Virus record (IMG/VR): IMGVR_UViG_3300035034_002381
Coordinates: 1 to 64,000 of that record
Length of the DNA: 64,000 bases
From: a virus
Taxonomy: Duplodnaviria > Heunggongvirae > Uroviricota > Caudoviricetes
Direction: 5' to 3' (one strand)
Shown here: positions 348-14,710 of the stretch, piece after piece
Numbering within the stretch: the first letter of the stretch is position 1
Layout: each line of letters opens with the position of its first letter
Position numbers and translations under genes: made by a program
Notes under the pieces: generated by a model
Databases searched by the model: none
Told to the model about the DNA's origin: nothing
What the model saw: only the letters and a program-made list of their open reading frames with translations

Positions 348-348
348 C

Positions 349-431: not shown

Positions 432-436
432 CAAAT

Positions 437-510: not shown

Positions 511-511
511 C

Positions 512-586
512 GACGCGGATAAGGCACAGGTAGTCTTGACAGTCTGTAAAACTGTTATGTTATGGGTTCGAGTCCCATGCGCGTCA
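512..586 (+). tRNA. tRNA-like, anticodon GTA on a class I (short variable region) body
   Basis: acceptor gacgcgg/gcgcgtc (7-66 G.G), anticodon arm acagt-ctGTAaa-actgt, T atggg-ttcgagt-cccat; isotype uncertain. Confidence 0.55.
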
Positions 587-587
587 C

Positions 588-673
588 TGAAGTGTACCCG
601 AGCGGTTTGCAGGGACCAGACTGATATTCTGGGAGTATTTTACTCAACGTGGGTTCGAATCCCATCACTTCAA
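588..673 (+). tRNA. class II tRNA with Tyr-like D-arm but anticodon loop ctGATat
   Basis: perfect acceptor tgaagtg/cacttca, D ccc-gagcggtttgca-ggg, anticodon arm ccaga-ctgatat-tctgg, variable arm gagta-tttt-tactc, T gtggg-ttcgaat-cccat. Confidence 0.6.
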
Positions 674-679
674 CCATAT

Positions 680-753
680 CGCGGGGTGCCTGGAGAGGTT
701 CCAGATCGGGCTCATAACTCGAATTAACGTGGGTTCGACTCCCACTCCCGCAA
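680..753 (+). tRNA. tRNA-fMet(CAT), initiator-like
   Basis: C1.A72 mismatch (cgcgggg/tcccgca), anticodon arm tcggg-ctCATaa-ctcga, T gtggg-ttcgact-cccac, discriminator A. Confidence 0.8.
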
Positions 754-755
754 CT

Positions 756-828
756 AGGATAGTAGCTTAGTGGCAAAAGCACAACTTTTACATGGTTGAT
801 ATCGTGGGTTCGAGTCCCATCTATCCTA
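756..828 (+). tRNA. tRNA-Val(TAC)
   Basis: acceptor aggatag/ctatcct, D gctt-agtggcaa-aagc, anticodon arm caact-ttTACat-ggttg, T gtggg-ttcgagt-cccat. Confidence 0.85.
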
Positions 829-867
829 CAACATGGGGGAAGACAAAGGTAAATTTATTGAAGATTT

Positions 868-940
868 GGGGCTGTAGCAAAGTTGGTCTATGCGGTGGAT
901 TGAAGATCCATGGATGTCGGTTCGATCCCGACCGGTCTCA
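868..940 (+). tRNA. tRNA-Phe(GAA)
   Basis: acceptor ggggctg/cggtctc (three G.U pairs), anticodon arm gtgga-ttGAAga-tccat, T gtcgg-ttcgatc-ccgac. Confidence 0.8.
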
Positions 941-1020
941 CAAGATTAAAAAATAGAAATCATGAAAAAAACATTAGATTATCTTTAAAACCTAAAGATA
1001 TGAGCAATGGCATTGAACAT

Positions 1021-1093
1021 GGTGTACATAGCTTAGTGGTAGAGCATCGTCTTGTGGTGGCGAGGGGCGTGAGTTCGAATCTCATTGTACACC
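1021..1093 (+). tRNA. tRNA-His(GTG)
   Basis: extra G-1 opposite discriminator C, acceptor gtgtaca/tgtacac, anticodon arm tcgtc-ttGTGgt-ggcga, T gtgag-ttcgaat-ctcat. Confidence 0.85.
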
Positions 1094-1136
1094 CACTTTG
1101 GTCATTTTTGAATTTTGGATAAAAATTGAAAATAAC

Positions 1137-1166
1137 TAAAACTTTCTACATTTAGTATAATATAAC
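1137..1166 (+). promoter_or_regulatory. recurrent phage promoter-like motif (TAAAACTTT ... TATAAT)
   Basis: TAAAACTTT at 1137-1145 and tataat at 1156-1161, 35 nt upstream of the ATG at 1201. Confidence 0.5.
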
Positions 1167-1200
1167 CTTGGAAAATTAATAACTTAATCTAAACAAATCT

Positions 1201-2661: not shown

Positions 2662-2690
2662 AACTTTTTACTGTAAAAGGTATATAAATA
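2659..2690 (+). promoter_or_regulatory. TAAAACTTT ... TATATAAA promoter-like motif
   Basis: same bipartite motif, upstream of the ATG at 2715. Confidence 0.45.
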
Positions 2691-2714
2691 ATCAAATAAC
2701 AAAAACAAACCAAA

Positions 2715-3176
2715 ATGGTAGATTTCAACACAATCACAGAGAAAAACGAATCTGAAGCAAAAGCAAAATTCAGAGAAAATGGTACCGGAGTTAAAATGGG
2801 AACATTTGCTTCTGGTGACGAAAGCAAATGGGAAGATCTAATTAACACAGGTCTTTTCAGTAATCAAGCTATCAAAAACAGAATGCTTGACGTTGCACGC
2901 AGAATTAACACTATGTGTAATGACGAACTTTTAGGTAATCTTGACGTGGCTTTTACTGTTACTGATGCTCGTGATAATAAGGTGGAATTTACCTACATGG
3001 ATATTTATACTTTTTTACGAGCGGCATACCGTTACAGAAGTGAAACTAAGAATTATAGAGAAATGAAAGCTAGAAAAGCTGAACTTGAAAAATTCACTGA
3101 AGAAACTAAGACCGTAAAAGAAAAACGTGCTGAGGCACTCAAGGAACTTAAAGAACTTGAAAAGTCTCTTGCATAA
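2715..3176 (+). CDS. hypothetical protein with C-terminal coiled coil
   Basis: 153-aa ORF preceded by the promoter motif; no recognisable catalytic motif. Confidence 0.7.
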   Translation: MVDFNTITEKNESEAKAKFRENGTGVKMGTFASGDESKWEDLINTGLFSNQAIKNRMLDVARRINTMCNDELLGNLDVAFTVTDARDNKVEFTYMDIYTFLRAAYRYRSETKNYREMKARKAELEKFTEETKTVKEKRAEALKELKELEKSLA

Positions 3177-3334
3177 AAGTTTCTGTCTCTGGGAGACCTA
3201 ACACTGATGATGACAAGCGTCTTGAAAACCTATTTAATCCATAAACTTGGGAAGAAAATGAGAGTGAGTAACTCGAATGAATCGAATGTATGATTCAAAA
3301 GGTATTGGTAGGTTAATTCTTATCAATACCTCTA

Positions 3335-3428
3335 AAATTCTTCTTAGAATCCATAAAACTTAGCTCATTGGTTGGGCATTTGTATAAGAACAAAAGGAGC
3401 GGTTCAATTCCGTAGACTAGAAGAATTT
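3335..3428 (+). ncRNA. stem-closed tRNA-mimic RNA (Y-RNA/YrlA-like architecture), module 1
   Basis: 10-bp terminal helix aaattcttct/agaagaattt (3335-3344/3419-3428); encloses the CTTAGAATCCATAAAACT motif, D-arm-like gctc-attggtt-gggc, hairpin tttgt-ataaga-acaaa and T-arm-like gcgg-ttcaatt-ccgt. Confidence 0.4.
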
Positions 3429-3432
3429 AATT

Positions 3433-3556
3433 GCCGGGTTAGTGTAAGGGTCAACACACGTAAAGTAAACATAGTGAACTTTACGAATCACTTAGAATAA
3501 CTAACTATACAATCCATATGGAGGACGGATAACTGGTTCGAGTCCAGTGCCTGGCA
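3433..3556 (+). ncRNA. 124-nt tRNA-like RNA with a large insertion between anticodon-position hairpin and T-arm
   Basis: acceptor gccgggt/gcctggc, D gtgt-aagggtca-acac, 8-bp hairpin cgtaaagt/actttacg, 46-nt insert carrying CTTAGAATAACTAACT, T actgg-ttcgagt-ccagt. Confidence 0.4.
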
Positions 3557-3567
3557 CAAATTAAATT

Positions 3568-3620
3568 GCAGAGTGGTGTAGTGGCAGCACACGTAAACGC
3601 CGATTAGTGAAGCATTTACG
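3568..3620 (+). ncRNA. paralogous 5'-half tRNA-like fragment
   Basis: gcagagtggtgtagtggcagcacacgtaaa...tagtgaagcatttacg parallels the 5' half of 3433-3556 (D gtgt/acac, hairpin cgtaaa/tttacg); no T-arm follows. Confidence 0.3.
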
Positions 3621-3720
3621 TTACACTAAAAAATTGGCAAATCTCGTTCAAAAGAAATTTTCAAATGTAACAACAGAAATTGAAGATGTTGATGAATGGG
3701 TATATTTATATGTAAGAATT

Positions 3721-3752
3721 TAAAACTTTTTTCAAACTAAAGAATATAAAGA
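3721..3752 (+). promoter_or_regulatory. TAAAACTTT ... TATAAAG promoter-like motif driving the 3761-3894 RNA
   Basis: motif ends about 9 nt before the 18-bp terminal stem. Confidence 0.5.
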
Positions 3753-3760
3753 ACAATAAT

Positions 3761-3894
3761 ACCAATAAAAATTCGACTTAGAATACCTAAAACTAAAGTT
3801 TAAATTAGCTCATTGAGCATATTTTTTTTATAAATACGGTCTAGGTTAATCCCTAGAAATTCAAACGTTTAGTCGAATTTTTATTGGTTTTTTA
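3761..3894 (+). ncRNA. stem-closed tRNA-mimic RNA (Y-RNA/YrlA-like architecture), module 3
   Basis: perfect 18-bp terminal helix accaataaaaattcgact/agtcgaatttttattggt (3761-3778/3871-3888) followed by a T-run; encloses CTTAGAATACCTAAAACT, tagctcattgagca and T-arm-like tctagg-ttaatc-cctaga; has its own upstream promoter motif. Confidence 0.5.
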
Positions 3895-3900
3895 AAATAT

Positions 3901-3975
3901 TGCGGGGTGGACTGGAGTTGGATCCAGCTTGGTCTCATAAGCCAAATCACGGGAGTTCGAATCTCTCCCCCGCTA
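3901..3975 (+). tRNA. tRNA-Met(CAT) type, second initiator-like body
   Basis: acceptor tgcgggg/ccccgct with a T1.T72 mismatch, anticodon arm ttggt-ctCATaa-gccaa, T gggag-ttcgaat-ctctc. Confidence 0.75.
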
Positions 3976-4280
3976 CTTGTTAATAGGCATTTTATCAGTA
4001 ACACTGGAAGTTTTGGCCGAATAAATTAAAAAGTAAAATGTGTGTTCGTGTGTTAGTAAAGAGCTGCACGAATTAAATTTAATAAGTTCTGACTAGTGGT
4101 TTCGGTTTAATAGGGAAAGATACTTACCACTGAAAAAACTAAAATGTATACCCTGTAGATTTTCAATATTTATCTAACTAAATATTGCGTGTTAGAAAGT
4201 TCTAGATTAACTGTGCACAGGTTATTTAGTTCTTATAAATTTTAGAATGCACTTAACAATGTAGCGTTAATCTAAAAAAT

Positions 4281-4354
4281 GCCTCGGTAACTCAGTTGGT
4301 TAGAGTATCTGCTCGACATGCAGAAAGCCACAGGTTCGAATCCTGTTCGGGGTA
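4281..4354 (+). tRNA. tRNA-Val(GAC) with C at position 33
   Basis: acceptor gcctcgg/tcggggt (G.U rich), D actc-agttggtta-gagt, anticodon arm tctgc-tcGACat-gcaga, T acagg-ttcgaat-cctgt. Confidence 0.7.
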
Positions 4355-4384
4355 CTTATTCTACTTAGAATACTTAAACTTTAT

Positions 4385-4419
4385 AAATTGGTTCGATTCC
4401 AATTTTTATTGGTCTTTTT
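4385..4419 (+). terminator. T-arm-like hairpin terminator
   Basis: aaattgg-ttcgatt-ccaattt followed by ttattggtcttttt; its 3' flank repeats the aatttttattggt of the module 3 stem. Confidence 0.45.
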
Positions 4420-4528
4420 CTGTCAATTAAGTATCAAATAAATTTTTAATATATTGATTGATTTGAATATATTAAACAACCTCTCTTAGAAAATCTAAGT
4501 TAGAGAAGTTAAATCATCAAAAACAAAA

Positions 4529-6472
4529 ATGATGTCTACAAAAACAAAATCTTTATCAAAAGAAAGAGTTGCCTCTGTTTCAGGAGATAAACCAAGACTC
4601 CCAAGAACTCTTGAAACTCTTCAAGGTTTAAGAACAGCTCAAGGATTATCTGACGCGCAAATTGCGAATATGTTAGATAACGCATTATCAGAAACTTCAA
4701 GTAACCATATTATATATGTTCTTGAAAGATTAATGTTACACATTGGTGATGTGAGTCGACAACACAATATGTTGAAAGAATTGGGAATTAATTCTAAATC
4801 TGGTGGCGCACAAGAACGTGGGGTATTCCGATCTATTTTACGATGGTGGGAAAAAACTTTGCCTGAATCATTTGCAGAAAATCTTCGAGTATTCGCTGAA
4901 TTCTCAGTTTTGGAAAACTTGATGTTTTATGAACTTAAAACTGAAAGAGCAACTGGAAAATTAATTGGAAAGGAAATTTTGTTTCCTATGCCAAGTAAAG
5001 TACATGAATTTCTAGCGAACGAAATTCACAAAAATAGAAATGTGAATCTTATTGCTAAGCATTTACCAAAATATGACACTGGTAAAAGTCGAACCACTAA
5101 GAAAACCATGCATATTAAAGACGGTAAGGATAGTTTCATGTGGAAACTTCCTGAAGGTAAAGCTTGGGTTAAATTAAATGGTGATCTAATCGAAGGAGAA
5201 TCTGTTAAGATTACTCAAGGTGATGTAGTTTCATATCCTCGTGATAAATCTTCACATGTTTTAGAAAAACAAAGATTCGTTAATTCTTGGATTTCTAGTT
5301 TCTGTAAAGTTATGGGATGGTCAATTACTGATTATAACAATTTCCGTAAACAACAAAACACACCGGAACAAAAATTCTCAAGTAAACGTGTTTTAAACAT
5401 GCCGAAATCAGATTTCTGGAAAATGCTTGATGGTTTGACTTCTGGTCAAAGATACAGAGTTTCTAGAATGTTAGATTTCAATGCGGAAAAGTGGGGAGAA
5501 TTACCGAAATGGTATGATTTGTGGGAAGGTAACCAAGAAAAAGTAGCCGATAAACTTCGACAAGCTGCAGCTGATGGTGATACTGAAGCAACAGAAAAAT
5601 TGAAGAAAGAATTCAAGGTTAAATCTACTGGAAAAAACACTGTTGATTTATTGAAAGATATGTTAACAGGTAATCATGACGATAGATTCATTAACAACAC
5701 TTATCAATCTATGATTGAGAATATGGATATTGTTGCGAATGTTTTTCCAGTAATTGATGGTTCCGCATCTATGGATTGCCAAATTGGTGGAGGATGGAGT
5801 CCTCGAAGTTCTCGAAGTTCTACGGATAGACAACTTTCAAATAGAGCTGTCGCATATGCTATGGCAATTGCATTTTCTACTAGAAACCCAGTACCAGGAT
5901 TCCGTAACACGTTCGGATGGTTCTCCAGAAACTTTCACATTGTTGGAAAATCTAAGTATGTGAACAATGCACCTAATCAATACGTTGATTCTGGAAGTTA
6001 TACTAAAAAGGTTAATGAGTTCAATGTTTTATCTGAAACTAATACTTTCACTGAAAACTACTCAAACTTGAGAAAATCTGATCCAGGAGAAATATCATCT
6101 ACAAATATGGGTTCTGTGATTACTCACTTCACAAATTTAGTAGAAACTGGTAAATTTCATGTTGAGGATCTTCCATCTGCGTTACTTTTTATCACAGATA
6201 ATGAAAACAACACAGGAATTAGTCCGAAGGAAGCGTTGGCAATAGCTAACAAAATTGGATGGTCTCCATTGGTTATTTTCTGGGGGTTAACTAAAGTTCC
6301 AAGCAACATGATGAATCAGTATAAGGGAATTCCTAACTGCTTACTTGTTGGAGGATTTAATGAATCAGTACTTTCACAAGTACTTAGGGGTATTAAATCT
6401 GGTTCAGTTGATCCAGAGGATGAAATCTGGAGTATTGTCGAAAATAAAAGATATGCAGTAATTACTGAGTAA
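4529..6472 (+). CDS. Ro60/TROVE-like (or DUF2828-like) protein with C-terminal vWA domain
   Basis: 647-aa ORF; MIDAS-type DGSASM, SSTNMG, LLFITDNENNTG and VGGFNESVLSQV resemble, by eye, the Ro60 vWA motifs DVSASM, GGTDCS, TDNETFAG and CGFDTGALDV; helical N-terminal two thirds. Confidence 0.55.
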   Translation: MMSTKTKSLSKERVASVSGDKPRLPRTLETLQGLRTAQGLSDAQIANMLDNALSETSSNHIIYVLERLMLHIGDVSRQHNMLKELGINSKSGGAQERGVFRSILRWWEKTLPESFAENLRVFAEFSVLENLMFYELKTERATGKLIGKEILFPMPSKVHEFLANEIHKNRNVNLIAKHLPKYDTGKSRTTKKTMHIKDGKDSFMWKLPEGKAWVKLNGDLIEGESVKITQGDVVSYPRDKSSHVLEKQRFVNSWISSFCKVMGWSITDYNNFRKQQNTPEQKFSSKRVLNMPKSDFWKMLDGLTSGQRYRVSRMLDFNAEKWGELPKWYDLWEGNQEKVADKLRQAAADGDTEATEKLKKEFKVKSTGKNTVDLLKDMLTGNHDDRFINNTYQSMIENMDIVANVFPVIDGSASMDCQIGGGWSPRSSRSSTDRQLSNRAVAYAMAIAFSTRNPVPGFRNTFGWFSRNFHIVGKSKYVNNAPNQYVDSGSYTKKVNEFNVLSETNTFTENYSNLRKSDPGEISSTNMGSVITHFTNLVETGKFHVEDLPSALLFITDNENNTGISPKEALAIANKIGWSPLVIFWGLTKVPSNMMNQYKGIPNCLLVGGFNESVLSQVLRGIKSGSVDPEDEIWSIVENKRYAVITE

Positions 6473-6492
6473 TCTTAATTTTCAAATTACTA

Positions 6493-6522
6493 AGGAGAGG
6501 CATTTTTGCCTCTCCTTTTTTT
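6493..6522 (+). terminator. intrinsic terminator
   Basis: aggagaggc-attttt-gcctctcct followed by a T-run. Confidence 0.8.
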
Positions 6523-6527
6523 ATGTT

Positions 6528-6556
6528 TAAAACTATATCAATCTTAGATATATAAT
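6528..6556 (+). promoter_or_regulatory. TAAAACT ... CTTAGATATATAAT promoter-like motif
   Basis: near-identical 40-nt block recurs at 22859-22900. Confidence 0.55.
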
Positions 6557-6576
6557 ACAAATAAATTAAATTAAAT

Positions 6577-7140
6577 ATGAAAAATGTAAAAAACTTTCGT
6601 GAGTTTCTGAACGAGAATCGAGTCGAAAAGAGATTAGCTAGTCTGGACGCAGAATATACTATTGACAAAAAGTTGTGTAAACAATTAATGGATGTGGGAG
6701 AGCAAATAGATTATATATACAATAATTTAGATTTGCCACACTCTGACTTTGCCACTTCTAATTTTATACCACCCGAAATTGAAAACGATGATAAAACAGC
6801 GAGTGATTGGGTAGAATCTGAGAAGGCTCTTATAAGAAGTGAACTAAAATCTAAAGAATCTGAATATAAAAAAATTCTTAGAAAAATACAATCTAAACAT
6901 TCGTATATTAATGATGTAATTGAATATCTTAATCAAACTAATTTAGGTTTTACTTTAGAAAATACATTTATTGATAAAATAAACAGAAGAAATGATATCA
7001 TAAATACTGTTGTAATAAAAAGTTGGTATGGGTATGCTAAAGCTTCAAGAAAAGAATTAGAAAGATATAAAATAACACCTGAGCAACTTGCAGGTACTAT
7101 ATTATCAATGCGAGCAGTCGCTGATGAACTAACATATTAG
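6577..7140 (+). CDS. hypothetical protein with CTS-like N-terminal leader (MKNVKNFREFLNE)
   Basis: 187-aa ORF; leader resembles the T4 capsid targeting sequence MKTYQEFIAE. Confidence 0.7.
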   Translation: MKNVKNFREFLNENRVEKRLASLDAEYTIDKKLCKQLMDVGEQIDYIYNNLDLPHSDFATSNFIPPEIENDDKTASDWVESEKALIRSELKSKESEYKKILRKIQSKHSYINDVIEYLNQTNLGFTLENTFIDKINRRNDIINTVVIKSWYGYAKASRKELERYKITPEQLAGTILSMRAVADELTY

Positions 7141-7224
7141 TAATAAAGTACTAAGTGATATTTGTAAACAATTAAAAAATAAGAATATCGAATGTGGCTT
7201 TGATGATGCATTCGACCCTAGTTA

Positions 7225-7425
7225 ATGGAAAGTTTTAAAAGTATACTCGAATCTAAAGATTCTGATAAACTCGCAAAAGAGATCAATAATGCAATCATTA
7301 AAATTGATGATTCTATGTCATACAAAGATTTTGCAGCTGCAGTTATCAAAATAATGAAAGAAGAATACGGAGAACACCTATATACAGAATTCTTAGGAAT
7401 TTTACAAAAAAATCTAAAGAAATGA
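7225..7425 (+). CDS. small hypothetical protein (MESFKSILESK, weak CTS-like)
   Basis: 66-aa ORF; ATGA overlap with the next start. Confidence 0.6.
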   Translation: MESFKSILESKDSDKLAKEINNAIIKIDDSMSYKDFAAAVIKIMKEEYGEHLYTEFLGILQKNLKK

Positions 7426-7790
7426 AGACTTTTAAAGAATTTATAAACGAATCGGAATATATGGTGGTGAATGGAAAGAAAACGCCGAGATAACAGCTAG
7501 ACAATTATCTTCTGGGTTGGTTATTAGCATTGAACCTACAAAAATAAAAGTATTAGTTAGTACATCATCAGAACTAGATATCGATGTTTTAATGTCTAAC
7601 AATGATAAAATTGAATATAGAAGTTATAGACGACTCGCCGTATACAAAACCAGGATCTACACAAAGTTTTATTAGAATAAAACTGAATGGAAAAACTATA
7701 TATGAAGATAAAGGAGCTAATTATGCCGACGCACCAAGTGACGAGATTATTAGAGCTTATGAAGAGGTGTATAAAATTAGATCCAAATAG
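7422..7790 (+). pseudogene. frame-split CTS-family gene (MKTFKEFINESE...)
   Basis: the reading frame passes from frame 0 (7422-7493) to the -1 frame (open 7436 to about 7670) and back to frame 0 (7602-7790); only the first segment has a start codon. Confidence 0.35.
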
Positions 7791-7839
7791 GGAATACGTT
7801 TGCTTCTATACACAATAATTCAAAATATAAGACTTGAAA

Positions 7840-8004
7840 ATGAAAAGATTTTTTAGAGTTGCTAGTATTACATCATTAATTGTTCTGTGTCTATTCACAT
7901 TTTTAATGCACGCGTTTCCATGGGAATGGTCAACTGATATTAGATTATATTGCATATTCACAATGGTTTCTTCATCGATTGTCGCGTATTTCGTAAGCCG
8001 TTAA
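7840..8004 (+). CDS. small membrane protein
   Basis: 54-aa ORF below the track cutoff; two hydrophobic helices; followed by a strong terminator. Confidence 0.5.
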   Translation: MKRFFRVASITSLIVLCLFTFLMHAFPWEWSTDIRLYCIFTMVSSSIVAYFVSR

Positions 8005-8026
8005 TAAAATTTAACATATAGATAAC

Positions 8027-8056
8027 AGTGGGACTTTTATAGTCCCACTTTTTTTG
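8027..8056 (+). terminator. intrinsic terminator
   Basis: agtgggact-tttat-agtcccact followed by a T-run. Confidence 0.8.
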
Positions 8057-8091
8057 TTTATATTTATACTGAATTTAAAAACTCAAAATAA

Positions 8092-8265
8092 ATGTCAAGA
8101 GAAAATATGGATTATATGGGCGATGCAGTCTACGCAGAATACACGGGATGGTCAATTGATTTACGAGTCAATGATCATCGGAATCCTGTCGCTGTCGTTT
8201 TAGAAGAACTAGTCTTACAAAATTTAGTCGATTTTGCTAGACGAAAAGGTCTTAAAATCAAATAA
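8092..8265 (+). CDS. small hypothetical protein
   Basis: 57-aa ORF MSRENMDYMGDAVYAEY..., immediately upstream of 8274. Confidence 0.45.
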   Translation: MSRENMDYMGDAVYAEYTGWSIDLRVNDHRNPVAVVLEELVLQNLVDFARRKGLKIK

Positions 8266-8273
8266 ATTATGAA

Positions 8274-8636
8274 ATGAAAGTAATTTATTCTGCAGTTTTT
8301 GTTGATAAGTCTACCCTTATAAAAAAATTTAAACCGGTATTTGATAACATTCATGCTCATCACATGACTATTGAATTTAGACCAGAATCAACAGATAATC
8401 TGGATATTGACAAAAATTACAAATTGAAAATTATCGGTAGATTAATTACAGACAAAGTTGATGTTCTTCTTGTTGATGATGGAGGCATCAGTAAAAATGA
8501 ATTCCCACACATTACAATTTCTATAGCTGATGGTGTTAGGCCTTTCGAAAGTAATACCGAAATCAAAAATAATTATTCCAAAATAACTAAACTTCGTGGA
8601 GAAATAACAGGCAAAATCGGAGTTTTCACCGCATAA
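8274..8636 (+). CDS. 2H phosphoesterase superfamily protein (LigT/CPDase/Acb1-like)
   Basis: two H-x-T-x motifs (HHMTIEF and PHITISI) about 60 aa apart in a 120-aa protein. Confidence 0.6.
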   Translation: MKVIYSAVFVDKSTLIKKFKPVFDNIHAHHMTIEFRPESTDNLDIDKNYKLKIIGRLITDKVDVLLVDDGGISKNEFPHITISIADGVRPFESNTEIKNNYSKITKLRGEITGKIGVFTA

Positions 8637-8645
8637 ATCTTAACT

Positions 8646-8870
8646 ATGAAAAAGGTAACATTTCTAATTTTAATATTGTTCAACATTAATTTATGGGCAC
8701 AAGAACAACCAGATACAGTTTATGTTCTGAAAAGTTTTACAGTCAAAGGTGTGAGAGCTGATCCTAAAACACCGATCACACAAAAAACAATAGACAAGAA
8801 ATTTATTGAACGCAATTATTTTGGTCAAGAAATTCCTATTCTTTTAAATACCACACCATCAATAAATTAG
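8646..8870 (+). pseudogene. N-terminal fragment of a TonB-dependent receptor (signal peptide plus start of plug domain)
   Basis: MKKVTFLILILFNINLWAQ signal, then VKGVRADPKTPITQKTI...GQEIPILLNTTPSIN; stops after 74 aa, whereas full receptors are 700+ aa. Confidence 0.55.
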
Positions 8871-8949
8871 GTATGGAAAAATCTCAAGACTTTGAACCAA
8901 CCGAACCAGAAGAAATGTATTAAAATAATTGAAAATAACTCTTCCAGAT

Positions 8950-8982
8950 TAAAACTTTTTGATTACTTTTGTATATATACTG
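8950..8982 (+). promoter_or_regulatory. TAAAACTTT ... TATATATA promoter-like motif
   Basis: upstream of a 29-codon ORF and tRNA island 2. Confidence 0.45.
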
Positions 8983-9118
8983 TATATTTAAACAAACAAT
9001 AATGAAAACACAAATCAACATAACTACCAGTTATTCTTTAAGAAGCTTATGTACGTCGCTGAGACTATATGAGACAGGGTATCTATGTTGATCAAACATA
9101 TTTTTGATTACAAACTAA

Positions 9119-9150
9119 ACCCTGTCTATTTAATTAGACAGGGTTTTTTT
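9119..9150 (+). terminator. intrinsic terminator
   Basis: accctgtcta-tttaat-tagacagggt followed by a T7 run. Confidence 0.8.
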
Positions 9151-9154
9151 ATTT

Positions 9155-9245
9155 GGAAGATAAAGCAGCTGCATTGGAGCGGCGACTAGCCTTGAAAACT
9201 AGGTCTCGGAGAAATCTGGGTGGGGTTCGAGTCCTCTGTCTTCCT
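9155..9245 (+). tRNA. tRNA-Ser(TGA)
   Basis: acceptor ggaagat/gtcttcc, anticodon loop ctTGAaa, long variable arm, T gggg-ttcgagt-cctc. Confidence 0.75.
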
Positions 9246-9277
9246 CAAAGTTTTAGTTCATTGACATATTAATATTA

Positions 9278-9361
9278 GAGGATGCGGTAATGGTGGTTAT
9301 TACAGTATCTTGGAAAGGTACCGATCGTTTATTCGGTCAGGGTTCGACTCCCTCATCCTCT
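9278..9361 (+). tRNA. tRNA-Ser(GGA)
   Basis: acceptor gaggatg/catcctc, anticodon arm gtatc-ttGGAaa-ggtac, variable arm gatcg-tttatt-cggtc, T aggg-ttcgact-ccct; ends uncertain by 1 nt. Confidence 0.75.
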
Positions 9362-9365
9362 GCTA

Positions 9366-9488
9366 TGTTCTTCTTAGAATAACTAATTTATGTAAATGTG
9401 AGTTCGAATCTCATCAAATGCTTTTAGCATCTGTAGCCAAATGGTTAGGCAATATACTTGAAATATATAACAAACGATTAGAAGAACA
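9366..9488 (+). ncRNA. circularly permuted tRNA-like element closed by a 9-bp leader-trailer helix
   Basis: order: helix 5' strand tgttcttct, CTTAGAATAACTAATTT, T-arm gtgag-ttcgaat-ctcat, capped acceptor hairpin caaatgc-tttta-gcatctg, ta, D-arm gcc-aaatggtta-ggc, anticodon arm atata-ctTGAaa-tatat, helix 3' strand agaagaaca. Confidence 0.5.
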
Positions 9489-9492
9489 ACAT

Positions 9493-9565
9493 GCTTCCAT
9501 AGTATAAAGGTTCATTATTCCTGTTTTGTAATCAGGCGATATCGGTTCGATTCCGATTGGGAGCT
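9493..9565 (+). tRNA. tRNA-Thr(TGT)
   Basis: acceptor gcttcca/tgggagc, anticodon loop ttTGTaa (31-39 T.T), T atcgg-ttcgatt-ccgat. Confidence 0.75.
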
Positions 9566-9714
9566 CAATGAATATGATGTTTATTTAGATCCTAAAAATG
9601 ATTATCTTATTGGTATAGATAGTAAAAAAATTGAAAAGGTCGAAGAATTGTATAATGTGCGTAATAATAGACAAGGATAATTTATCTTGGAATGATATTC
9701 AAAATAAAATAAAT

Positions 9715-9795
9715 GTTTCAGTGGTGGAATGGTAGACACGTCGGTCTTAGGAACCGATGCCGAAAGGCGTGAGAGTTCGAGTCTCTCCTGGAATA
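9715..9795 (+). tRNA. tRNA-Leu(TAG), canonical class II
   Basis: acceptor gtttcag/ctggaat, D gtgg-aatggtag-acac, anticodon arm tcggt-ctTAGga-accga, variable arm tgccgaaaggcgt, T gagag-ttcgagt-ctctc. Confidence 0.8.
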
Positions 9796-9796
9796 C

Positions 9797-9876
9797 ACTC
9801 TGGTGGATTAGGTAAATTGGTACAGCTAAACGGCTTAGACCCGTATCCCTTCTGGGTTCGAATCCCAGTCAGAGTA
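9797..9876 (+). tRNA. atypical 80-nt tRNA, anticodon TAG (Leu codons), expanded D region, short variable region
   Basis: acceptor actctgg/tcagagt, D region tggattaggtaaattggtacagctaa, anticodon arm acgg-ctTAGac-ccgt, T ctggg-ttcgaat-cccag, A73. Confidence 0.55.
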
Positions 9877-9881
9877 CAAAT

Positions 9882-9961
9882 GCTCCTGTGGTTTATGTAA
9901 ATTGGCACAGCTAAGCGGCTTAAACCCGCAACCTTTATGGGTTCGAGTCCCATCAGGAGTA
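9882..9961 (+). tRNA. atypical 80-nt tRNA, anticodon TAA (Leu codons), same family
   Basis: acceptor gctcctg/caggagt, D region tggtttatgtaaattggcacagctaa, anticodon arm gcgg-ctTAAac-ccgc, T atggg-ttcgagt-cccat, A73. Confidence 0.55.
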
Positions 9962-10056
9962 CAAAAGTTTATCAACGTCTTGAGTCAAGTTGGATGATGA
10001 CAAAAAGGCTAACGGCAGAAGTGAATCCATCGCACTGTGTTACATAAACTTTATCT

Positions 10057-10129
10057 GGCCAGGATTCTCAATTGGACGGGACTCTGTCTTCTAAACAGAT
10101 GTTTGTGGGTTCGAATCCCATCTTGGTCT
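10057..10129 (+). tRNA. tRNA-Arg(TCT)
   Basis: acceptor ggccagg/cttggtc, D tctc-aattggac-ggga, anticodon arm tctgt-ctTCTaa-acaga, T gtggg-ttcgaat-cccat. Confidence 0.85.
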
Positions 10130-10135
10130 CTAAAC

Positions 10136-10209
10136 GCAGGTATACCTAAGTGGTTTAAAGGAGCGGATTGCAAACCCGTTATTCATTGGTTCGAATCCAA
10201 TTACCTGCT
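10136..10209 (+). tRNA. tRNA-Cys(GCA)
   Basis: perfect acceptor gcaggta/tacctgc, anticodon loop ttGCAaa, T attgg-ttcgaat-ccaat. Confidence 0.8.
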
Positions 10210-10214
10210 CACTT

Positions 10215-10297
10215 GGAAGGTAACTTGATGGTGATAGAGGTAGTTTGCTAAACTACTGGCCGTTTACTCGGTCGAGGTTCGATTCCTCTGCCTTCCG
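10215..10297 (+). tRNA. tRNA-Ser(GCT)
   Basis: acceptor ggaaggt/gccttcc, anticodon arm gtagt-ttGCTaa-actac, variable arm ggccg-tttact-cggtc, discriminator G. Confidence 0.8.
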
Positions 10298-10301
10298 CTA
10301 T

Positions 10302-10379
10302 GCTCCTGTGGATTATGTAAAAGCACAGCTAACACCTTGAGGAGGTGATCCTTTGTGGGTTCGAGTCCCGCCAGGAGTA
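10302..10379 (+). tRNA. atypical 78-nt tRNA, anticodon GAG (Leu codons), same family
   Basis: acceptor gctcctg/caggagt, D region tggattatgtaaaagcacagctaa, anticodon arm cacc-ttGAGga-ggtg, T gtggg-ttcgagt-cccgc, A73. Confidence 0.55.
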
Positions 10380-10382
10380 CAA

Positions 10383-10476
10383 AGAAGCAAAGAGTTAGTT
10401 AGGTTAGACTGGCTTGTTATGTGGTGAAATTGGTAAACGCGAGCGCTTTGGTGCTTAGTAACCTTAACACTTCTTA
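10383..10476 (+). ncRNA. tRNA-derived fragment (Leu-type D-arm, no T-arm) flanked by 6-bp complementary ends
   Basis: aagaag/cttctt ends; internal gtggtgaaattggtaaacgc resembles the Leu D-arms at 9715 and 10788. Confidence 0.3.
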
Positions 10477-10479
10477 TTT

Positions 10480-10553
10480 GCTGAGTTAGTATAGTCGGTT
10501 TATTACGATACCCTGGTACGGTATTAACACCAGTTCGATTCTGGTACTCAGCT
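10480..10553 (+). tRNA. tRNA-Thr(GGT)
   Basis: perfect acceptor gctgagt/actcagc, anticodon arm atacc-ctGGTac-ggtat, T accag-ttcgatt-ctggt. Confidence 0.8.
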
Positions 10554-10565
10554 CATGAAAAATAT

Positions 10566-10645
10566 GCCTCTGTGGATTATGTAAATTGGCACAGCTAACG
10601 GTTTCAAACTCCGATCTTTTATGGGTTCGAATCCCATCAGAGGCA
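10566..10645 (+). tRNA. atypical 80-nt tRNA, anticodon CAA (Leu codons), same family
   Basis: acceptor gcctctg/cagaggc, D region tggattatgtaaattggcacagctaa, anticodon arm cgg(t)-ttCAAac-(t)ccg, T atggg-ttcgaat-cccat, A73. Confidence 0.5.
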
Positions 10646-10661
10646 CAAGTAGGAGAAATTT

Positions 10662-10746
10662 AGTCCAGTGGCGAAACAGGTATACGCACAAGATTTAAGC
10701 TCTTGCTTCCATTGAGGAATTGCGGGTTCGATTCCCGCCTGGATTA
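10662..10746 (+). tRNA. tRNA-Leu(TAA), canonical class II
   Basis: acceptor agtccag/ctggatt, D gcga-aacaggtata-cgc, anticodon arm caaga-ttTAAgc-tcttg, long variable arm, T gcggg-ttcgatt-cccgc. Confidence 0.8.
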
Positions 10747-10749
10747 CTA

Positions 10750-10781
10750 AGTTAGTACGGGTTCGATCCCCGTCTTGGCTA
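10750..10781 (+). ncRNA. second tRNA-like minihelix (acceptor-like stem plus T-arm)
   Basis: agttag/ttggct (wobble-rich) enclosing acggg-ttcgatc-cccgt; no D or anticodon arm. Confidence 0.35.
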
Positions 10782-10787
10782 CTAAAT

Positions 10788-10899
10788 TTGACCGTGGTGA
10801 AATTGGTAAACACACCCTTAAATCAGGGAGTATGAGAATATGTACTTGAAGCTGACGCAGAACATCATACATATGTAGGTTCGAATCCTATCGGTCGAA
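10788..10899 (+). ncRNA. 112-nt tRNA-like RNA (Leu-type D-arm) with a roughly 46-nt extra arm
   Basis: acceptor ttgaccg/cggtcga, D gtg-aaattggtaaa-cac, weak anticodon-position hairpin ccct-taaatc-aggg, extra hairpin atatgta...tacatat, T gtagg-ttcgaat-cctat. Confidence 0.45.
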
Positions 10900-10904
10900 C
10901 AAAT

Positions 10905-10978
<74 letters not shown>

Positions 10979-10983
10979 CTATC

Positions 10984-11013
10984 TAAAACTTTATTCAATT
11001 TCCATAATATAAT
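10984..11013 (+). promoter_or_regulatory. TAAAACTTT ... TAATATAAT promoter-like motif
   Basis: immediately after the last tRNA, upstream of the ATG at 11035. Confidence 0.5.
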
Positions 11014-11034
11014 GTGTAACTAAACTTTATAGAA

Positions 11035-11205
11035 ATGGAAAAAATACTAATGTCTGAAATTTTGACTTATGACAACTTCGACGACGGTTTACCTGAAGAA
11101 TATGAATTTGTCGATTCTGAACAAACATATTTTGATGGTGAAAAAGGCTTTGTTAATATCGAAGCTATTATCAGAAGAGAATCAGACTCACAATTTTTAA
11201 AGTAA
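11035..11205 (+). CDS. small acidic protein; possible -1 frameshift extension to 11333
   Basis: 56-aa ORF ending caa ttt tta aag taa; T_TTA_AAG heptamer at 11196-11202; the -1 frame stays open for 43 further codons. Confidence 0.45.
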   Translation: MEKILMSEILTYDNFDDGLPEEYEFVDSEQTYFDGEKGFVNIEAIIRRESDSQFLK

Positions 11206-11260
11206 AATACACCGATTATGGAAAAGGTGAAAATGATCTTATGGAAAGTGTGGGCGAACC

Positions 11261-11326
11261 TGTAACTCAAAAATCCAAAACAATTTTCTACTATGTAACT
11301 CAAAAATCCAAAACAATTTTCTACTA
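11261..11326. repeat. perfect 33-bp tandem duplication
   Basis: tgtaactcaaaaatccaaaacaattttctacta occurs twice (11261-11293 and 11294-11326); encodes VTQKSKTIFYY twice in the -1 frame. Confidence 0.95.
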
Positions 11327-11598
11327 TGAATAGTATGACCTTTTTATTAGGCATTACGTATGTTATCGGATACTTTTTAAGTATCATAATCCTAAAAAGA
11401 TTTCACCATATTTTGGATATTCCAGATTATAATTCATATCCAAAATATAATGAATATTCAAGCAATGCACAAGCATACACAATGTGGTCAATTGTATGGC
11501 CGTTATTTTGGGTCTTAAAAATCATAGTTCTTCTTTTCGAAAAACTTATTAATTTAACTAAATATATACTAAATGGAAACTCAAGCTCAAGAAAGTAA
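11326..11598 (+). CDS. small membrane protein
   Basis: 90-aa ORF with two or three hydrophobic segments. Confidence 0.6.
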   Translation: MNSMTFLLGITYVIGYFLSIIILKRFHHILDIPDYNSYPKYNEYSSNAQAYTMWSIVWPLFWVLKIIVLLFEKLINLTKYILNGNSSSRK

Positions 11599-12508
11599 TA
11601 GAATAATCAAAGAAATTCATTCTTCTTTTTATTCAATGGATCAAGAAACTGATACATATCTTCAACGCCAAATTCAAGCTGCGTATGACGAATCTATCAA
11701 AGGCTCTTTAGAGAAGACTATCAAAAAATATGGTTTTAATAATGCCAAAAACTCTGACATTTTTGATAAAGCATTACTTGAAAGTCGGGAAGAATTAAAT
11801 GATGTCTTAAACGAATGTTCAGTGACATATCCAGGTAAAAAGTTTATTACTGATGAACAAATAGCACAGCTTTGTATCAAATATAATTTATTACTAACAA
11901 CACCAGATAGATTTATTGGTGAAATACCAGAACGTAATATCCAAGAGTTGAACGACTTTAATCCAAAAGGTAGCGAAAAAAAGGCGTTTTTTGATCCCAA
12001 AGTTTTTTATAAATTATATAACTTTATAAGAGAATATGAAGAGAAGCATTATTATATGAATAAAAATCTAAAAAAATCTATTGCAATGATTTATCGATCA
12101 TTTATGAATCATAGTAACATGGATTCAATACTTTTTCCAGATAATAATAAATATATTGTTCATGGTGTCAATGAAGATAAATCAATCACCACAACTGAAT
12201 TAGGTATTCAAACAGCAAAGAAAATATCTGAAGAATTATCTAAGAAAGAAAGAAATTCTGTACCTATTTTACCGTTGTTTTCACAAACTATGATAGCAGC
12301 GACATCTGATTTACTTGATATTCCTAAACTAGGATTGATCAAGAATAAAAGAAATGAACTTGTTTTAGGTCTTAATTCAAAACAATTTAAAGAAAATTTT
12401 CTACCTGATCCAATTGTACTACATAAAGTAAAACGTGGTGCTATTATTATAACTGCTTGGGGCTTGGAATCTCAAGATGAACTAGTATTCAATCCTATTA
12501 TTAATTGA
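11573..12508 (+). CDS. hypothetical protein
   Basis: 311-aa ORF; no motif recognised. Confidence 0.75.
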   Translation: METQAQESNRIIKEIHSSFYSMDQETDTYLQRQIQAAYDESIKGSLEKTIKKYGFNNAKNSDIFDKALLESREELNDVLNECSVTYPGKKFITDEQIAQLCIKYNLLLTTPDRFIGEIPERNIQELNDFNPKGSEKKAFFDPKVFYKLYNFIREYEEKHYYMNKNLKKSIAMIYRSFMNHSNMDSILFPDNNKYIVHGVNEDKSITTTELGIQTAKKISEELSKKERNSVPILPLFSQTMIAATSDLLDIPKLGLIKNKRNELVLGLNSKQFKENFLPDPIVLHKVKRGAIIITAWGLESQDELVFNPIIN

Positions 12509-12512
12509 TAAT

Positions 12513-12695
12513 ATGGAATATACGTGTATAAAGGTAGTAACTATTACAGAAGGTAATTTACCCCCTAGGATAGTAGTTGAATTGAAATCTGGAAATATTA
12601 AAATCGAAATAGAAATAAATGAAGACTTTGAAAAGGTCCCTGAAGATCTATTGAAACTTAAACCGGGCGAAACGTATTCGCTTTTAATAAATTAA
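12513..12695 (+). CDS. small hypothetical protein
   Basis: 60-aa ORF, tight spacing with its neighbours. Confidence 0.55.
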   Translation: MEYTCIKVVTITEGNLPPRIVVELKSGNIKIEIEINEDFEKVPEDLLKLKPGETYSLLIN

Positions 12696-12712
12696 TAAAA
12701 ACAAAACCCCTT

Positions 12713-14710
12713 ATGAAAAAACTATTACTATTATTAATGCTATTTTCTTCTGTGAATTTATTTTCACAAGAAAATTATTTGATCCTTGATACCATTGGTA
12801 TGGATCAATACGAAAAACAAATTTTTGAGGAAAAAGTAAATTCCCCAGAATCTAACGAAGAGATTTCATGTTTAACCTTATTTGCTGGATCCAGACATGA
12901 ATTTAATTCAAAGTTAAAATCAATTAACGAATCAAAAAGCAATGTTGATATTAACGAAACTATTAGAATTCCCGTTGTTTATCATATTATGCACATTACC
13001 AAATTTGGTCTTGGTGGAGTTCCTTTCGAATCAGGACTAATTAGCAAACAACAAGTGTGGTCTGCTTTGGATGATCATATTAAAGGATTCCAAGCATATG
13101 TTGGGACTCGTCAAGAAACGGGATATGATACTAATATAGAATTTTATTTAGCAAACCTGGATGAAGAAGGAAATTTATTTGACGGTGTTATTTATTATGA
13201 TATGGACACAGTCCCCTGGGTAACTACTGAGGAAAGAGAACAATTTTTTAATTTCGGAATGTTTGGTATTGGACTTGATGATTTCTTAATCAAAAATAAC
13301 ATTTCATTAGACCCTGATAGATATCTAAATGTTTACATTACTCCAGAGATTTCTGGTAATGATGGAGGTAATGGGATCCAAGGATATGCATTTTTTCCAG
13401 GTGGTACTCAAGCACTTTGGGGACAAACAAATTTATCAAATATAGTAGGATTACCTTCAGTAAACTATTATGATGCTGATTTTGATGGTATAATGGACGA
13501 AGGAGTGGGGCCTTTACTTAAACCCAGTGCTCAAGAAAATGATACCCATCCACACGAAACCGGACATAATTTCCGTCTTTATCATACATTCCAAGGACAA
13601 AGTTGTGCAATTGAAGGTAATTGTGATACCCAAGGAGATGGAATCTGTGATACGGAGCCAACCCCACGTAATACCCAATGTAATTATAATGGGTGTCCGA
13701 CTCCTACCCCCGTTTCTAATAAGAATTATATGTCATATTCAGAATGCAGGTTTGAATTTACCGAAGACCAAAACCATGAAATGCGATCTTCTTTCACTGA
13801 AGATCTACCATTACTTGTTAGCAGTATTGATTCGGGATTATGTTATATTCCAAGACAAACCCAAGTTGAAATGATCATCCCACAATCAAACGATATAACA
13901 GGATGTCCCGATTCTCCTTTCCTTTCTTTTACTGTAAGAAACCTAGGTCCTGAAGTTGATTCAACAGGAATCCCGGTTATGTTAACAAATCTTGTTATAG
14001 CTTATGGAAATGATTTGTCTAACGTTGACACGTTTGAATTTAATTTAAATTTAGGTCCTTTCCAATATGATGATTTAGTTTTACCTTCTGTAGATAATCA
14101 AAGTTCAAATAGAAAGATCAAATTACTTTCTGTTAACGGATTTCCGGTAGAAGATTCAAGCACTCTTTCTACTAATCTTCCAGTAGGACCTAATGAATTA
14201 ATTGTAGTTTGCCAACCAAACTGTTCATCAATACAAGATAATTATTGGAAAGTTACAAATTTAAATACTGGAACTATTGCATTCCAAAGTGAATATTATC
14301 CTGTTAATTATTCAGGACCTCCTATCGAAACAAGGATCTGTTTACCTGGAGGCAATTATCAATTTTCATTAATTGATGAATCTGAAAATGGTTGGAATGG
14401 TACTTTTTGTAATCCCGATTTTTTCGATGAACCATTTATGGAAGTTTATTACAATGGATCCTTATGTCAATCTATACAAGGTGATGAATTTAATAGTTCT
14501 GAGTGGTCATTTACAAATTGTAACACTAGTACTCAGGGACTGATTGAAAATGAAGAAGAACCTGTTTTAGAATATGAGTACTATACTCAACAAATGGAAA
14601 GAGTAGAATTTGAAGATATTGTTACAAACCAATTCTTTATAATTTATACTTATGAAAAATCTGAAAGTTCTAGAGAGTTGATCGATAGAGATTGGATCAT
14701 AAAACAGTAA
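12713..14710 (+). CDS. secreted zinc metallopeptidase, M43 (pappalysin/ulilysin-like)
   Basis: signal peptide MKKLLLLLMLFSSVNLFSQ; HETGHNFRLYHTFQG fits the M43 HExxHxxGxxH-type motif; Cys-rich; C-terminal strand-rich tail ending IIKQ resembles a T9SS sorting domain. Confidence 0.7.
   Translation: MKKLLLLLMLFSSVNLFSQENYLILDTIGMDQYEKQIFEEKVNSPESNEEISCLTLFAGSRHEFNSKLKSINESKSNVDINETIRIPVVYHIMHITKFGLGGVPFESGLISKQQVWSALDDHIKGFQAYVGTRQETGYDTNIEFYLANLDEEGNLFDGVIYYDMDTVPWVTTEEREQFFNFGMFGIGLDDFLIKNNISLDPDRYLNVYITPEISGNDGGNGIQGYAFFPGGTQALWGQTNLSNIVGLPSVNYYDADFDGIMDEGVGPLLKPSAQENDTHPHETGHNFRLYHTFQGQSCAIEGNCDTQGDGICDTEPTPRNTQCNYNGCPTPTPVSNKNYMSYSECRFEFTEDQNHEMRSSFTEDLPLLVSSIDSGLCYIPRQTQVEMIIPQSNDITGCPDSPFLSFTVRNLGPEVDSTGIPVMLTNLVIAYGNDLSNVDTFEFNLNLGPFQYDDLVLPSVDNQSSNRKIKLLSVNGFPVEDSSTLSTNLPVGPNELIVVCQPNCSSIQDNYWKVTNLNTGTIAFQSEYYPVNYSGPPIETRICLPGGNYQFSLIDESENGWNGTFCNPDFFDEPFMEVYYNGSLCQSIQGDEFNSSEWSFTNCNTSTQGLIENEEEPVLEYEYYTQQMERVEFEDIVTNQFFIIYTYEKSESSRELIDRDWIIKQ

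Follow-up and report, generated by a model that had tools for sequence, protein, structure and literature searches.

The window analyzed here is a 64,000-nucleotide stretch of DNA, positions 1 to 64,000 of the IMG/VR record IMGVR_UViG_3300035034_002381, which belongs to a virus of the Caudoviricetes. Among its tRNA genes lies a small gene for a 120-residue protein with two H-x-T-x motifs, which an initial annotation made from the sequence had described as a minimal 2H phosphoesterase, either Acb1-like or a 2',3'-cyclic phosphodiesterase (CPDase). Both the pair of motifs and the 2H assignment held up, as the histidines and threonines of the motifs were invariant among homologs (49/49) and a 2H fold was predicted for the protein. 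The gene and its motifs are located as follows:

8274 to 8636 including the stop codon, plus strand: mini-2H phosphoesterase gene, ATG to TAA, encoding 120 amino acids (aa) with the N-terminus MKVIYSAVFV
8361 to 8372, plus strand: proximal HxT motif 1, HMTI, aa 30-33, with H30 and T32 invariant in 49 of 49 sequences and placed on model strand 30-35
8508 to 8519, plus strand: distal HxT motif 2, HITI, aa 79-82, with H79 and T81 invariant in 49 of 49 sequences, I80 kept in 48 of 49, and placed on model strand 79-84

The window has 90 open reading frames (ORFs) with 60 aa or more, of which that of the 2H protein alone carries two H-hydrophobic-[TS]-hydrophobic motifs 30-100 residues apart, and two or more such motifs arose in 565 of 100,000 shuffles of the protein (0.57%). 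A word-index search found nine homologs, while a PDB sequence search with the single 2H sequence and a megablast of the 2H region against phages each returned no match. In two alignments, of 50 and 49 diverse homologs, H30, T32, H79 and T81 were the sole invariant columns, and both HxT motifs were kept in 91 of 92 domain instances at a spacing of ~48-50 residues. Comparison with an 80%-identical homolog in a sister phage (L007) gave a dN/dS of 0.12 (dS 0.88, dN 0.10), indicating that the gene is under purifying selection. Judged from these sequence patterns, ORF 8274-8636 appears to be an expressed, selected gene and not a chance ORF.

AlphaFold modeled the protein with a pLDDT of 85.2 from a 10-sequence alignment, and with a pLDDT of 97.3 and a pTM of 0.89 from the 49-sequence alignment. 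Six long strands and two helices make up the model. Strands 30-35 and 79-84 bear the motifs, and the final strand takes up residues 105-119 of 120 so that no tail is left; longer homologs carry 15-25 additional C-terminal residues. When the pLDDT-97.3 model was compared to all PDB chains with Foldseek, each of the best 50 matches was either CNPase (TM score, TMq, of 0.66-0.79) or 6u05 (TMq 0.74), the kinase-CPD (KIN-CPD) structure of Candida albicans Trl1, and Acb1 entries were absent among these 50. The best matches among viral predicted structures (BFVD) were a 765-aa Marseillevirus 'RNA ligase' (TMq 0.69) and a 771-aa CroV protein (TMq 0.65), and Acb1 entries in that set reached a TMq of only 0.47-0.51. 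The comparison with Acb1 and LigT that the initial annotation had proposed as a check yielded no close similarity to either. The 120-aa protein is predicted to fold as a 2H domain, with CNPase and the CPD of Trl1 as the nearest structural neighbors of the model.

These neighbors are considerably larger than the phage protein. The CPD of the fungal/plant tRNA ligase Trl1 (PF08302) spans ~190 residues compared with ~115 in the mini-2H domain, its HxT motifs lie 85 residues apart compared with 49 in the window protein, and it is a domain of a eukaryotic ligase whereas the phage copy stands alone. CNPase is a member of the Trl1-CPD clade and can replace the Trl1 CPD in yeast (PMC7145591), yet its catalytic domain has ~210 residues with histidines 79 apart (H230/H309), its sequence is 10-18% identical to the window protein, and the protein belongs to myelin and carries a kinase-like domain at its N-terminus.

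The likeness to the Trl1 CPD extends beyond the fold and the HxT tetrad to further residues of the active site. In the Candida enzyme, Tyr647 on strand 1 and His687 at +5 of the proximal His pack on the terminal nucleoside, with the stacking of Tyr647 being imputed, Asn763 at -4 of the distal His and Asn782 at +15 in helix alpha5 hold the active-site water, and His682/Thr684 make up the general-acid side (PMC7145591). Putative counterparts in the phage protein, matched by sequence register and secondary structure and not by superposition, are the following:

8286 to 8288, plus strand: Y5 on strand 1, putative counterpart of Tyr647, Y in 48 of 49 sequences, matched by its strand-1 position
8376 to 8378, plus strand: F35 at +5 of the proximal His, putative counterpart of His687, aromatic in 48 of 49, in the same register
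8496 to 8498, plus strand: N75 at -4 of the distal His, putative counterpart of Asn763, N in 41 of 49, in the same register
8553 to 8555, plus strand: N94 at +15 of the distal His in helix 92-99, putative counterpart of Asn782, N in 42 of 49, in the same register and helix position

S93 is likewise kept in 45 of 49 sequences. Trl1 Gln678 and Glu680 have no clear counterparts in the 2H protein, in which N25 lies at -5 (37/49). By analogy with Trl1 His682/Thr684, H30/T32 would form the general-acid side. The shared registers of the strand-1 Tyr, the +5 aromatic residue and the -4/+15 Asn pair support the presence of a Trl1-CPD/CNPase-type active site in the 120-aa protein.

Sequence searches pointed to the same clade. 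The sole Pfam match of the 2H protein was tRNA_lig_CPD (PF08302), a local match over aa 74-99 with 17.8 bits (E 0.0025; gathering cut-off 23 bits), and 39 of 50 family members matched this model at E <= 0.01, the best at 2.2e-8. Because the score of the window protein falls below the threshold while 39 of its 50 relatives match, we treat its family as related to, and separate from, PF08302. The PHROGs match of the protein was an unnamed family. A clean family profile found no significant match among PDB sequences, with CNPase appearing at E 1.5, so that structure, Pfam and active-site registers are what ties the family to CNPase and Trl1. A profile built from whole-protein alignments was discarded, since the flanks of giant proteins had entered it and its PDB matches were low-complexity and coiled-coil noise. 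Membership in the family of LigT/ThpR, the bacterial RNA 2',3'-cyclic phosphodiesterase, was also rejected: superfamily and reaction type are shared, but the LigT_PEase model was matched by only 1 of 50 mini-2H family members, and no further Pfam family appeared. ThpR relies on Arg130, which the Trl1 CPD does without (PMC7145591).

Acb1 (T4 gp57B), the anti-CBASS enzyme, resembles the window protein in being a compact phage 2H enzyme with an HxT/HxT tetrad, and its T4 copy lies near tRNA genes. It differs in that its histidines are 69 residues apart, in that it cleaves the 3'-5' bonds of cyclic oligonucleotides, and in having a C-terminal lid that closes over the cyclic dinucleotide (PMC9117128). 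An hhalign comparison of the family profile with T4 Acb1 gave a probability of 7.4% over 27 columns and aligned only the second motif, PHITLS, beyond which no sequence relationship was detectable; BLASTP of the 2H protein against Acb1 gave an E of 0.26. Because the 120-aa protein stops at its last strand, it has no C-terminal segment able to form the Acb1 lid. Kinship with Acb1 is not supported on these three grounds, and of the two options raised by the initial annotation, it is the CPDase acting in 2',3'-cyclic-phosphate end healing that fits the evidence. Overall, the 2H protein most resembles the Trl1-CPD/CNPase clade rather than Acb1.

The same comparisons bear on whether the protein could instead degrade immune signals, in the manner of Acb1 or of viral 2'-5' phosphodiesterases, with CBASS cyclic di- or trinucleotides, type III CRISPR cyclic oligoadenylates or 2'-5' oligoadenylate-type messengers as substrates, so that abortive-infection effectors stay off. 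Such a role was proposed by Iyer et al. for the 2H domains of polyvalent proteins (PMC5512222; also PMC9503650), and it would suit the many family members found in polyvalent proteins that are predicted to be injected with the DNA, as well as the fact that most solo copies have no repair partner nearby. Besides the missing kinship and lid, however, the structure is far closer to CNPase and the Trl1 CPD, which only open 2',3'-cyclic phosphates, the Trl1-type active-site residues are conserved, and the polynucleotide kinase and PNKP phosphatase fusions and the Rnl1 operon described below would have no role in signal degradation. We consider this function quite unlikely.

To place the protein within its family, a profile was searched against 1.84 billion cluster representatives, which returned at least 1,030 proteins with an E of 1e-3 or lower, 72 of them at 1e-30 or lower. 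Among the best 150 representatives, 50 were at most 160 aa long (solo), 22 had 161-250 aa, 43 had 251-1000 aa and 35 exceeded 1000 aa, up to 7,041 aa. About one third of the family is solo, and the remainder is fused, often within giant polyvalent proteins; at one viral locus (L023) the domain lies inside a 2732-aa ORF. Iyer, Burroughs, Anand, de Souza and Aravind described 2H domains in phage and plasmid polyvalent proteins together with 'solo counterparts' in 2017 (PMC5512222), and 2H domains are present in 33-35% of medium and jumbo phages (PMC9503650). The mini-2H family probably equals or overlaps this polyvalent family, with which it shares solo and giant multi-domain forms and the company of ART-PolyVal and LPD23; it departs from the 2017 description in having a kinase-2H gene beside Rnl1 in one lineage and kinase or PNKP-phosphatase fusions in others. 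No experimental characterization of the mini-2H family was found in the literature searched. A Pfam scan of 68 multi-domain members gave these fusion partners:

ART-PolyVal, 9 of 68
PARP, 1 of 68
AAA_33 kinase, 2 of 68
HAD_PNKP, 1 of 68
GNAT, 2 of 68
DUF5824, 2 of 68
DUF5661, 2 of 68
LPD23, PemK/MazF, radical SAM, NTP_transf_2/Polbeta and others, 1 of 68 each

No MuF or portal fusions were present among the 68 proteins. With ART-PolyVal or PARP as the commonest partner (10/68), the same chemistry might be directed at small-molecule cyclic phosphates, 2',3'-cNMP or ADPr>P, in nucleotide salvage or NAD/ADP-ribose housekeeping. A link between 2H, ART and ADPr>P is established for KptA systems (PMC9503650), CNPase as the best structural match is characterized on 2',3'-cyclic nucleotides (PMC11629607), and an NAD-salvage-like cluster is also found in the window. 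Against a small-molecule substrate, domains of polyvalent proteins need not share a pathway, and the kinase partners of the family are polynucleotide kinases (T4 Pnk, CthPnk) and its ligase partner is Rnl1, both of which act on RNA ends. This possibility strikes us as improbable.

The compact architectures of the family are more telling about substrate than the polyvalent ones, and several of them combine the 2H domain with polynucleotide end-healing enzymes. One 302-aa member (P0053) pairs 2H with an AAA_33 kinase (E 2.6e-13) that matches the RNA-repair Pnk structures of C. thermocellum (E 7e-8) and Pnkp1, and a second (P0015) has the same two domains. The Pnk structures, 4MDE and 4MDF, are of the C. 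thermocellum polynucleotide kinase (PMC3902929). A 291-aa member (P0143) carries a PNKP-type HAD phosphatase next to its 2H domain (E 3.1e-26), and a separate AAA_33 kinase lies two genes upstream on its contig.

For T4, phage tRNA repair by Pnkp, a kinase plus HAD phosphatase, together with Rnl1 is textbook knowledge. The 3'-phosphatase of T4 Pnkp can be viewed as a functional analogue of the mini-2H enzyme, since it heals 2',3'-cyclic phosphate RNA ends in phage tRNA repair, and a PNKP-type HAD is fused to mini-2H in P0143. The T4 enzyme has an unrelated fold and a metal-dependent acyl-phosphatase chemistry, and it removes the phosphate wholly, whereas the proposed mini-2H reaction would leave a 2'-phosphate.

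A further arrangement came from an IMG/VR scan for relatives, which gave 15 viral loci. At three of them (L027, L028 and L029, contigs of 92-115 kb), a 308-aa ORF at 9437-10363 encodes a kinase-2H fusion with the kinase at the N-terminus. In L027, residues 26-168 of this protein match T4 polynucleotide kinase (E 7.5e-7) and residues 183-297 match the mini-2H profile (hhalign 97.1%, E 5.6e-11), and the gene is followed by a 101-aa ORF and then by a 374-aa protein resembling T4 RNA ligase 1 (Rnl1; E 9e-14), making up a cassette at 9437-11838. By its sequence, the cassette comprises the Trl1 domain set (ligase, LIG; kinase, KIN; and CPD), distributed over two phage genes, with KIN-CPD in Trl1 order. 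After it, on the opposite strand, lies a 399-aa ORF (12077-13276) that reads like an IS605-type TnpB.

On another contig of 371 kb (L021), a solo 2H protein 49% identical to the window protein is found 8 kb from an Rnl1-like gene that sits beside tRNAs. The statement that polyvalent-type 2H domains do not occur together with RNA ligases (Iyer et al. 2017) does not hold for these loci, given the kinase-2H genes near Rnl1 in L027-29 and the Rnl1-like gene 8 kb away in L021. Within the 2H domain, P0015 and P0053 are 46-47% identical to the window protein and L027 is 38% identical. The kinase fusions show three distinct arrangements from separate parts of the 2H family, and because they vary in both arrangement and family position, they point to a recurrent functional link between mini-2H and polynucleotide end healing.

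In the window, the 2H gene is the middle gene of a three-gene cassette embedded in a tRNA island. This surrounding, and the one candidate end-healing partner encoded elsewhere in the window, consist of:

229 to 10979, plus strand: tRNA island with 21 tRNA genes in blocks 229-1094, 3901-4355 and 9277-10979, in which the 2H cassette is embedded
8027 to 8049, plus strand: terminator-like hairpin upstream of the three-gene cassette, a consensus match only
8092 to 8265, plus strand: 57-aa ORF that stops 8 nt short of the 2H start codon and is conserved beside the 2H gene only in the sister phage
8646 to 8870, plus strand: 74-aa ORF with a hydrophobic, signal-peptide-like N-terminus, the third cassette gene, directly after the 2H gene
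9117 to 9146, plus strand: terminator-like hairpin at the end of the cassette, just ahead of the following tRNA block
35015 to 35989, plus strand: P-loop kinase (AAA_33/Zeta) and HAD (NT5C-like) protein, the sole candidate end-healing partner in the window

Neither the 57-aa nor the 74-aa flanking ORF had informative matches; the latter, for which PDB and Pfam gave no match, may by eye resemble the start of an outer-membrane receptor. The island continues upstream: the window starts at position 5247 of an overlapping contig, L036 (64,373 bp), and extends ~4.9 kb beyond its end, so that it must stem from a longer record or another assembly, and the 5.2 kb that L036 adds hold eight further tRNAs (L036:15-1564) and small ORFs. 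Weak extra Rfam tRNA-like matches at 9155-9244, 9882-9961 and 10788-10899, not called by ARAGORN, could represent decayed or interrupted tRNAs.

The cassette and its tRNA layout recur in the sister phage (L007/L008). In a separate lineage, L031 and L032 (contigs of 248 and 86 kb), a solo 2H gene at 10001-10300 encoding a 34% identical protein stands within a 19-tRNA array (L031:4495-12356), with tRNA genes within ~110 bp upstream and ~70 bp downstream. The 2H gene therefore lies in tRNA arrays in two independent lineages, the window with L007/L008 and L031/L032, and a functional link of the 2H cassette to the tRNA island is suggested. One tRNA of the L031/L032 array has a CTA anticodon (amber suppressor), and L021 also has such a tRNA, which suggests TAG recoding as in Lak phages.

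The position of the 2H gene among tRNA genes could also be taken as a sign of an RNase like Usb1, which would shorten or cleave RNA and generate cyclic phosphate ends, for example in an attack on host RNA or in the processing of phage tRNA precursors. This was one of two roles that Iyer et al. proposed for polyvalent-type 2H domains (PMC5512222). Usb1 was, however, a distant match relative to CNPase and the Trl1 CPD, and the 5'-kinase and 3'-phosphatase fusions and the ligase linkage point to repair, making an offensive or processing RNase very improbable.

Taken as a whole, the evidence favors the window gene being an RNA 2',3'-cyclic phosphodiesterase for end healing, to which we assign a probability of roughly 60%. 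The cyclic-phosphodiesterase chemistry is more secure than the biological role. By analogy with its structural neighbors, the protein would be a miniaturized 2H phosphoesterase of the Trl1-CPD/CNPase clade with a ~115-residue core, in which the two HxT motifs would face each other over a concave beta sheet. H30/T32 and H79/T81 would hold the cyclic phosphate, one histidine activating water and the other protonating the leaving 3'-O, and the 2',3'-cyclic phosphate would be opened without a metal to give a 2'-phosphate and a free 3'-OH. Based on the kinase and phosphatase fusions, the L027 cassette and the embedding in a tRNA island, we infer that in the infected cell the protein acts on RNA that host RNases have cut, probably tRNA. 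The enzyme would act on the 2',3'-cyclic-phosphate ends left on RNA, and on tRNA above all, by metal-independent defence RNases of the host. This would be where 'healing' begins, with a 5'-kinase and an RNA ligase afterwards closing the cut again. The window phage would make it as a stand-alone enzyme from a three-gene cassette within a large tRNA island.

Several observations weigh against end healing as the role of the window gene. No Rnl1, Rnl2, RtcB or ligase of the L027/L021 type was found in the 64-kb window or 5 kb further upstream, and the lineage with an adjacent ligase, L027, is only 38% identical to the window protein. The kinase-HAD gene at 35015-35989 sits between Prs-like and NAMPT genes and is only faintly polynucleotide-kinase-like. 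The commonest fusion partner in the family is an ADP-ribosyltransferase in polyvalent proteins (10/68) and not an RNA-repair domain, and Iyer et al. in 2017 saw no ligase association for polyvalent-type 2H domains and favored RNase or signal-degrading roles (PMC5512222). With 17.8 bits, the 120-aa protein also misses the 23-bit gathering cut-off of tRNA_lig_CPD.

The tRNA setting is also less specific than the two arrays imply, since only ~5 of ~14 lineages have tRNAs within 10 kb of the 2H gene, and T4 Acb1 (gene 57B) itself lies 1.4 kb from the T4 tRNA cluster (L015:1174-4411, equal to T4 71173-74410). Because T4 Acb1 also adjoins tRNA genes, tRNA adjacency is not diagnostic of function, and the position of 57B shows that small accessory genes cluster near phage tRNA arrays whatever their function. 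Finally, no neighbor of the 2H gene was conserved across solo lineages. In two lineages, overlapping ORFs of 166-170 aa lie downstream of the solo homologs and were considered as a conserved partner, but they are unrelated, and no neighbor had a Pfam match.

The kinase-HAD gene at 35015-35989 was weakly similar to the L027 polynucleotide kinase (E 0.007) and had no T4 Pnkp match, and it may serve NAD or nucleotide metabolism instead of end healing. It belongs to a plus-strand cluster at 34123-37714 with a Prs-like gene (34123-35022) and a NAMPT-family gene (35996-37714), followed downstream by a NUDIX ORF. Its gene content resembles a phage pathway for NAD+ salvage or reconstitution, and such pathways are known from counter-defence.

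A second gene near the 2H cassette encodes a 647-aa DUF2828/DUF7788 protein (4529-6472, plus strand), 1.8 kb upstream of 2H and directly after tRNA-Met and tRNA-Val, that matches PHROG 850, 'RNA-binding protein'. We take the DUF2828/DUF7788 family to be Ro/TROVE-like with a vWA domain. A member (L010:15770-17230) also lies 5.3 kb from the 2H homolog in L010/L012, an unrelated phage lineage. TROVE proteins have been discussed as RNA-repair platforms in jumbo phages (PMC7824862), and the gene could be a phage Ro-like RNA quality-control module; Rfam gave no Y-RNA match at E <= 0.01.

The initial annotation had also called the genome T4-like. This is right only in a loose sense: the capsid module is of the Gp23/S77 type, with a Gp23-type capsid protein and an S77 protease, but the major capsid protein (module at 19214-22802, plus strand) is closest to those of Lak megaphages of Prevotella (40-43% identity) and of a 462-kb uncultured phage. 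The complete genome is probably much larger than the window. Directly after the capsid gene lies a 561-aa homing/HNH endonuclease ORF. Other accessory genes (1201-2661, 12713-14710, 26041-26505, 37791-47360) include SPFH/Band-7, M43 metallopeptidase and SET-domain genes and a run of glycosyltransferase, LicD and pyruvyl-transferase genes, and a C5 DNA methylase, a thymidylate synthase and an S1-domain protein are encoded within 37.8-63.8 kb.

The 2H superfamily, its reaction and the idea of phage 2H enzymes were already known, and a 2H family with polyvalent and solo forms had been recognized by computation in 2017. New here are the assignment of a mini-domain to the Trl1-CPD/CNPase clade, with residues specific to that clade conserved, the extremely small size of the domain, and its associations with kinase, phosphatase and ligase, including a phage KIN-CPD plus Rnl1 cassette that runs counter to the earlier statement on RNA ligases. 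The literature searched contained no biochemical characterization of a phage enzyme of the Trl1-CPD/CNPase type. Standard annotation labels the family 'hypothetical protein', as none of the Pfam models is matched above its threshold.

More tentatively, and with more doubt than confidence on our part, mini-2H may represent the Trl1-CPD/CNPase clade pared down to its smallest catalytic unit, and also a phage counter-defence module of wide distribution against RNases that leave cyclic-phosphate ends, deployed as solo proteins, fused to kinases or phosphatases, or injected within polyvalent proteins across more than 1,000 clusters. The kinase-2H plus Rnl1 cassette would then correspond in viruses to the healing-and-sealing system of the three-domain tRNA ligase of eukaryotes, which may possibly have evolved from it.

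If the end-healing function is correct, a tiny metal-independent cyclic phosphodiesterase would be present in many large phages and, as part of injected polyvalent proteins, in phages and plasmids. It would counter defences that leave 2',3'-cyclic phosphates, such as anticodon nucleases of the PrrC/RloC type, HEPN RNases, MazF-type toxins, Cas13 and Csm6. The window protein would be the smallest 2H enzyme among those compared (120 aa vs 140-216 aa), making it useful for defining the minimal catalytic core, and phage RNA repair would be linked to the eukaryotic tRNA-ligase pathway.

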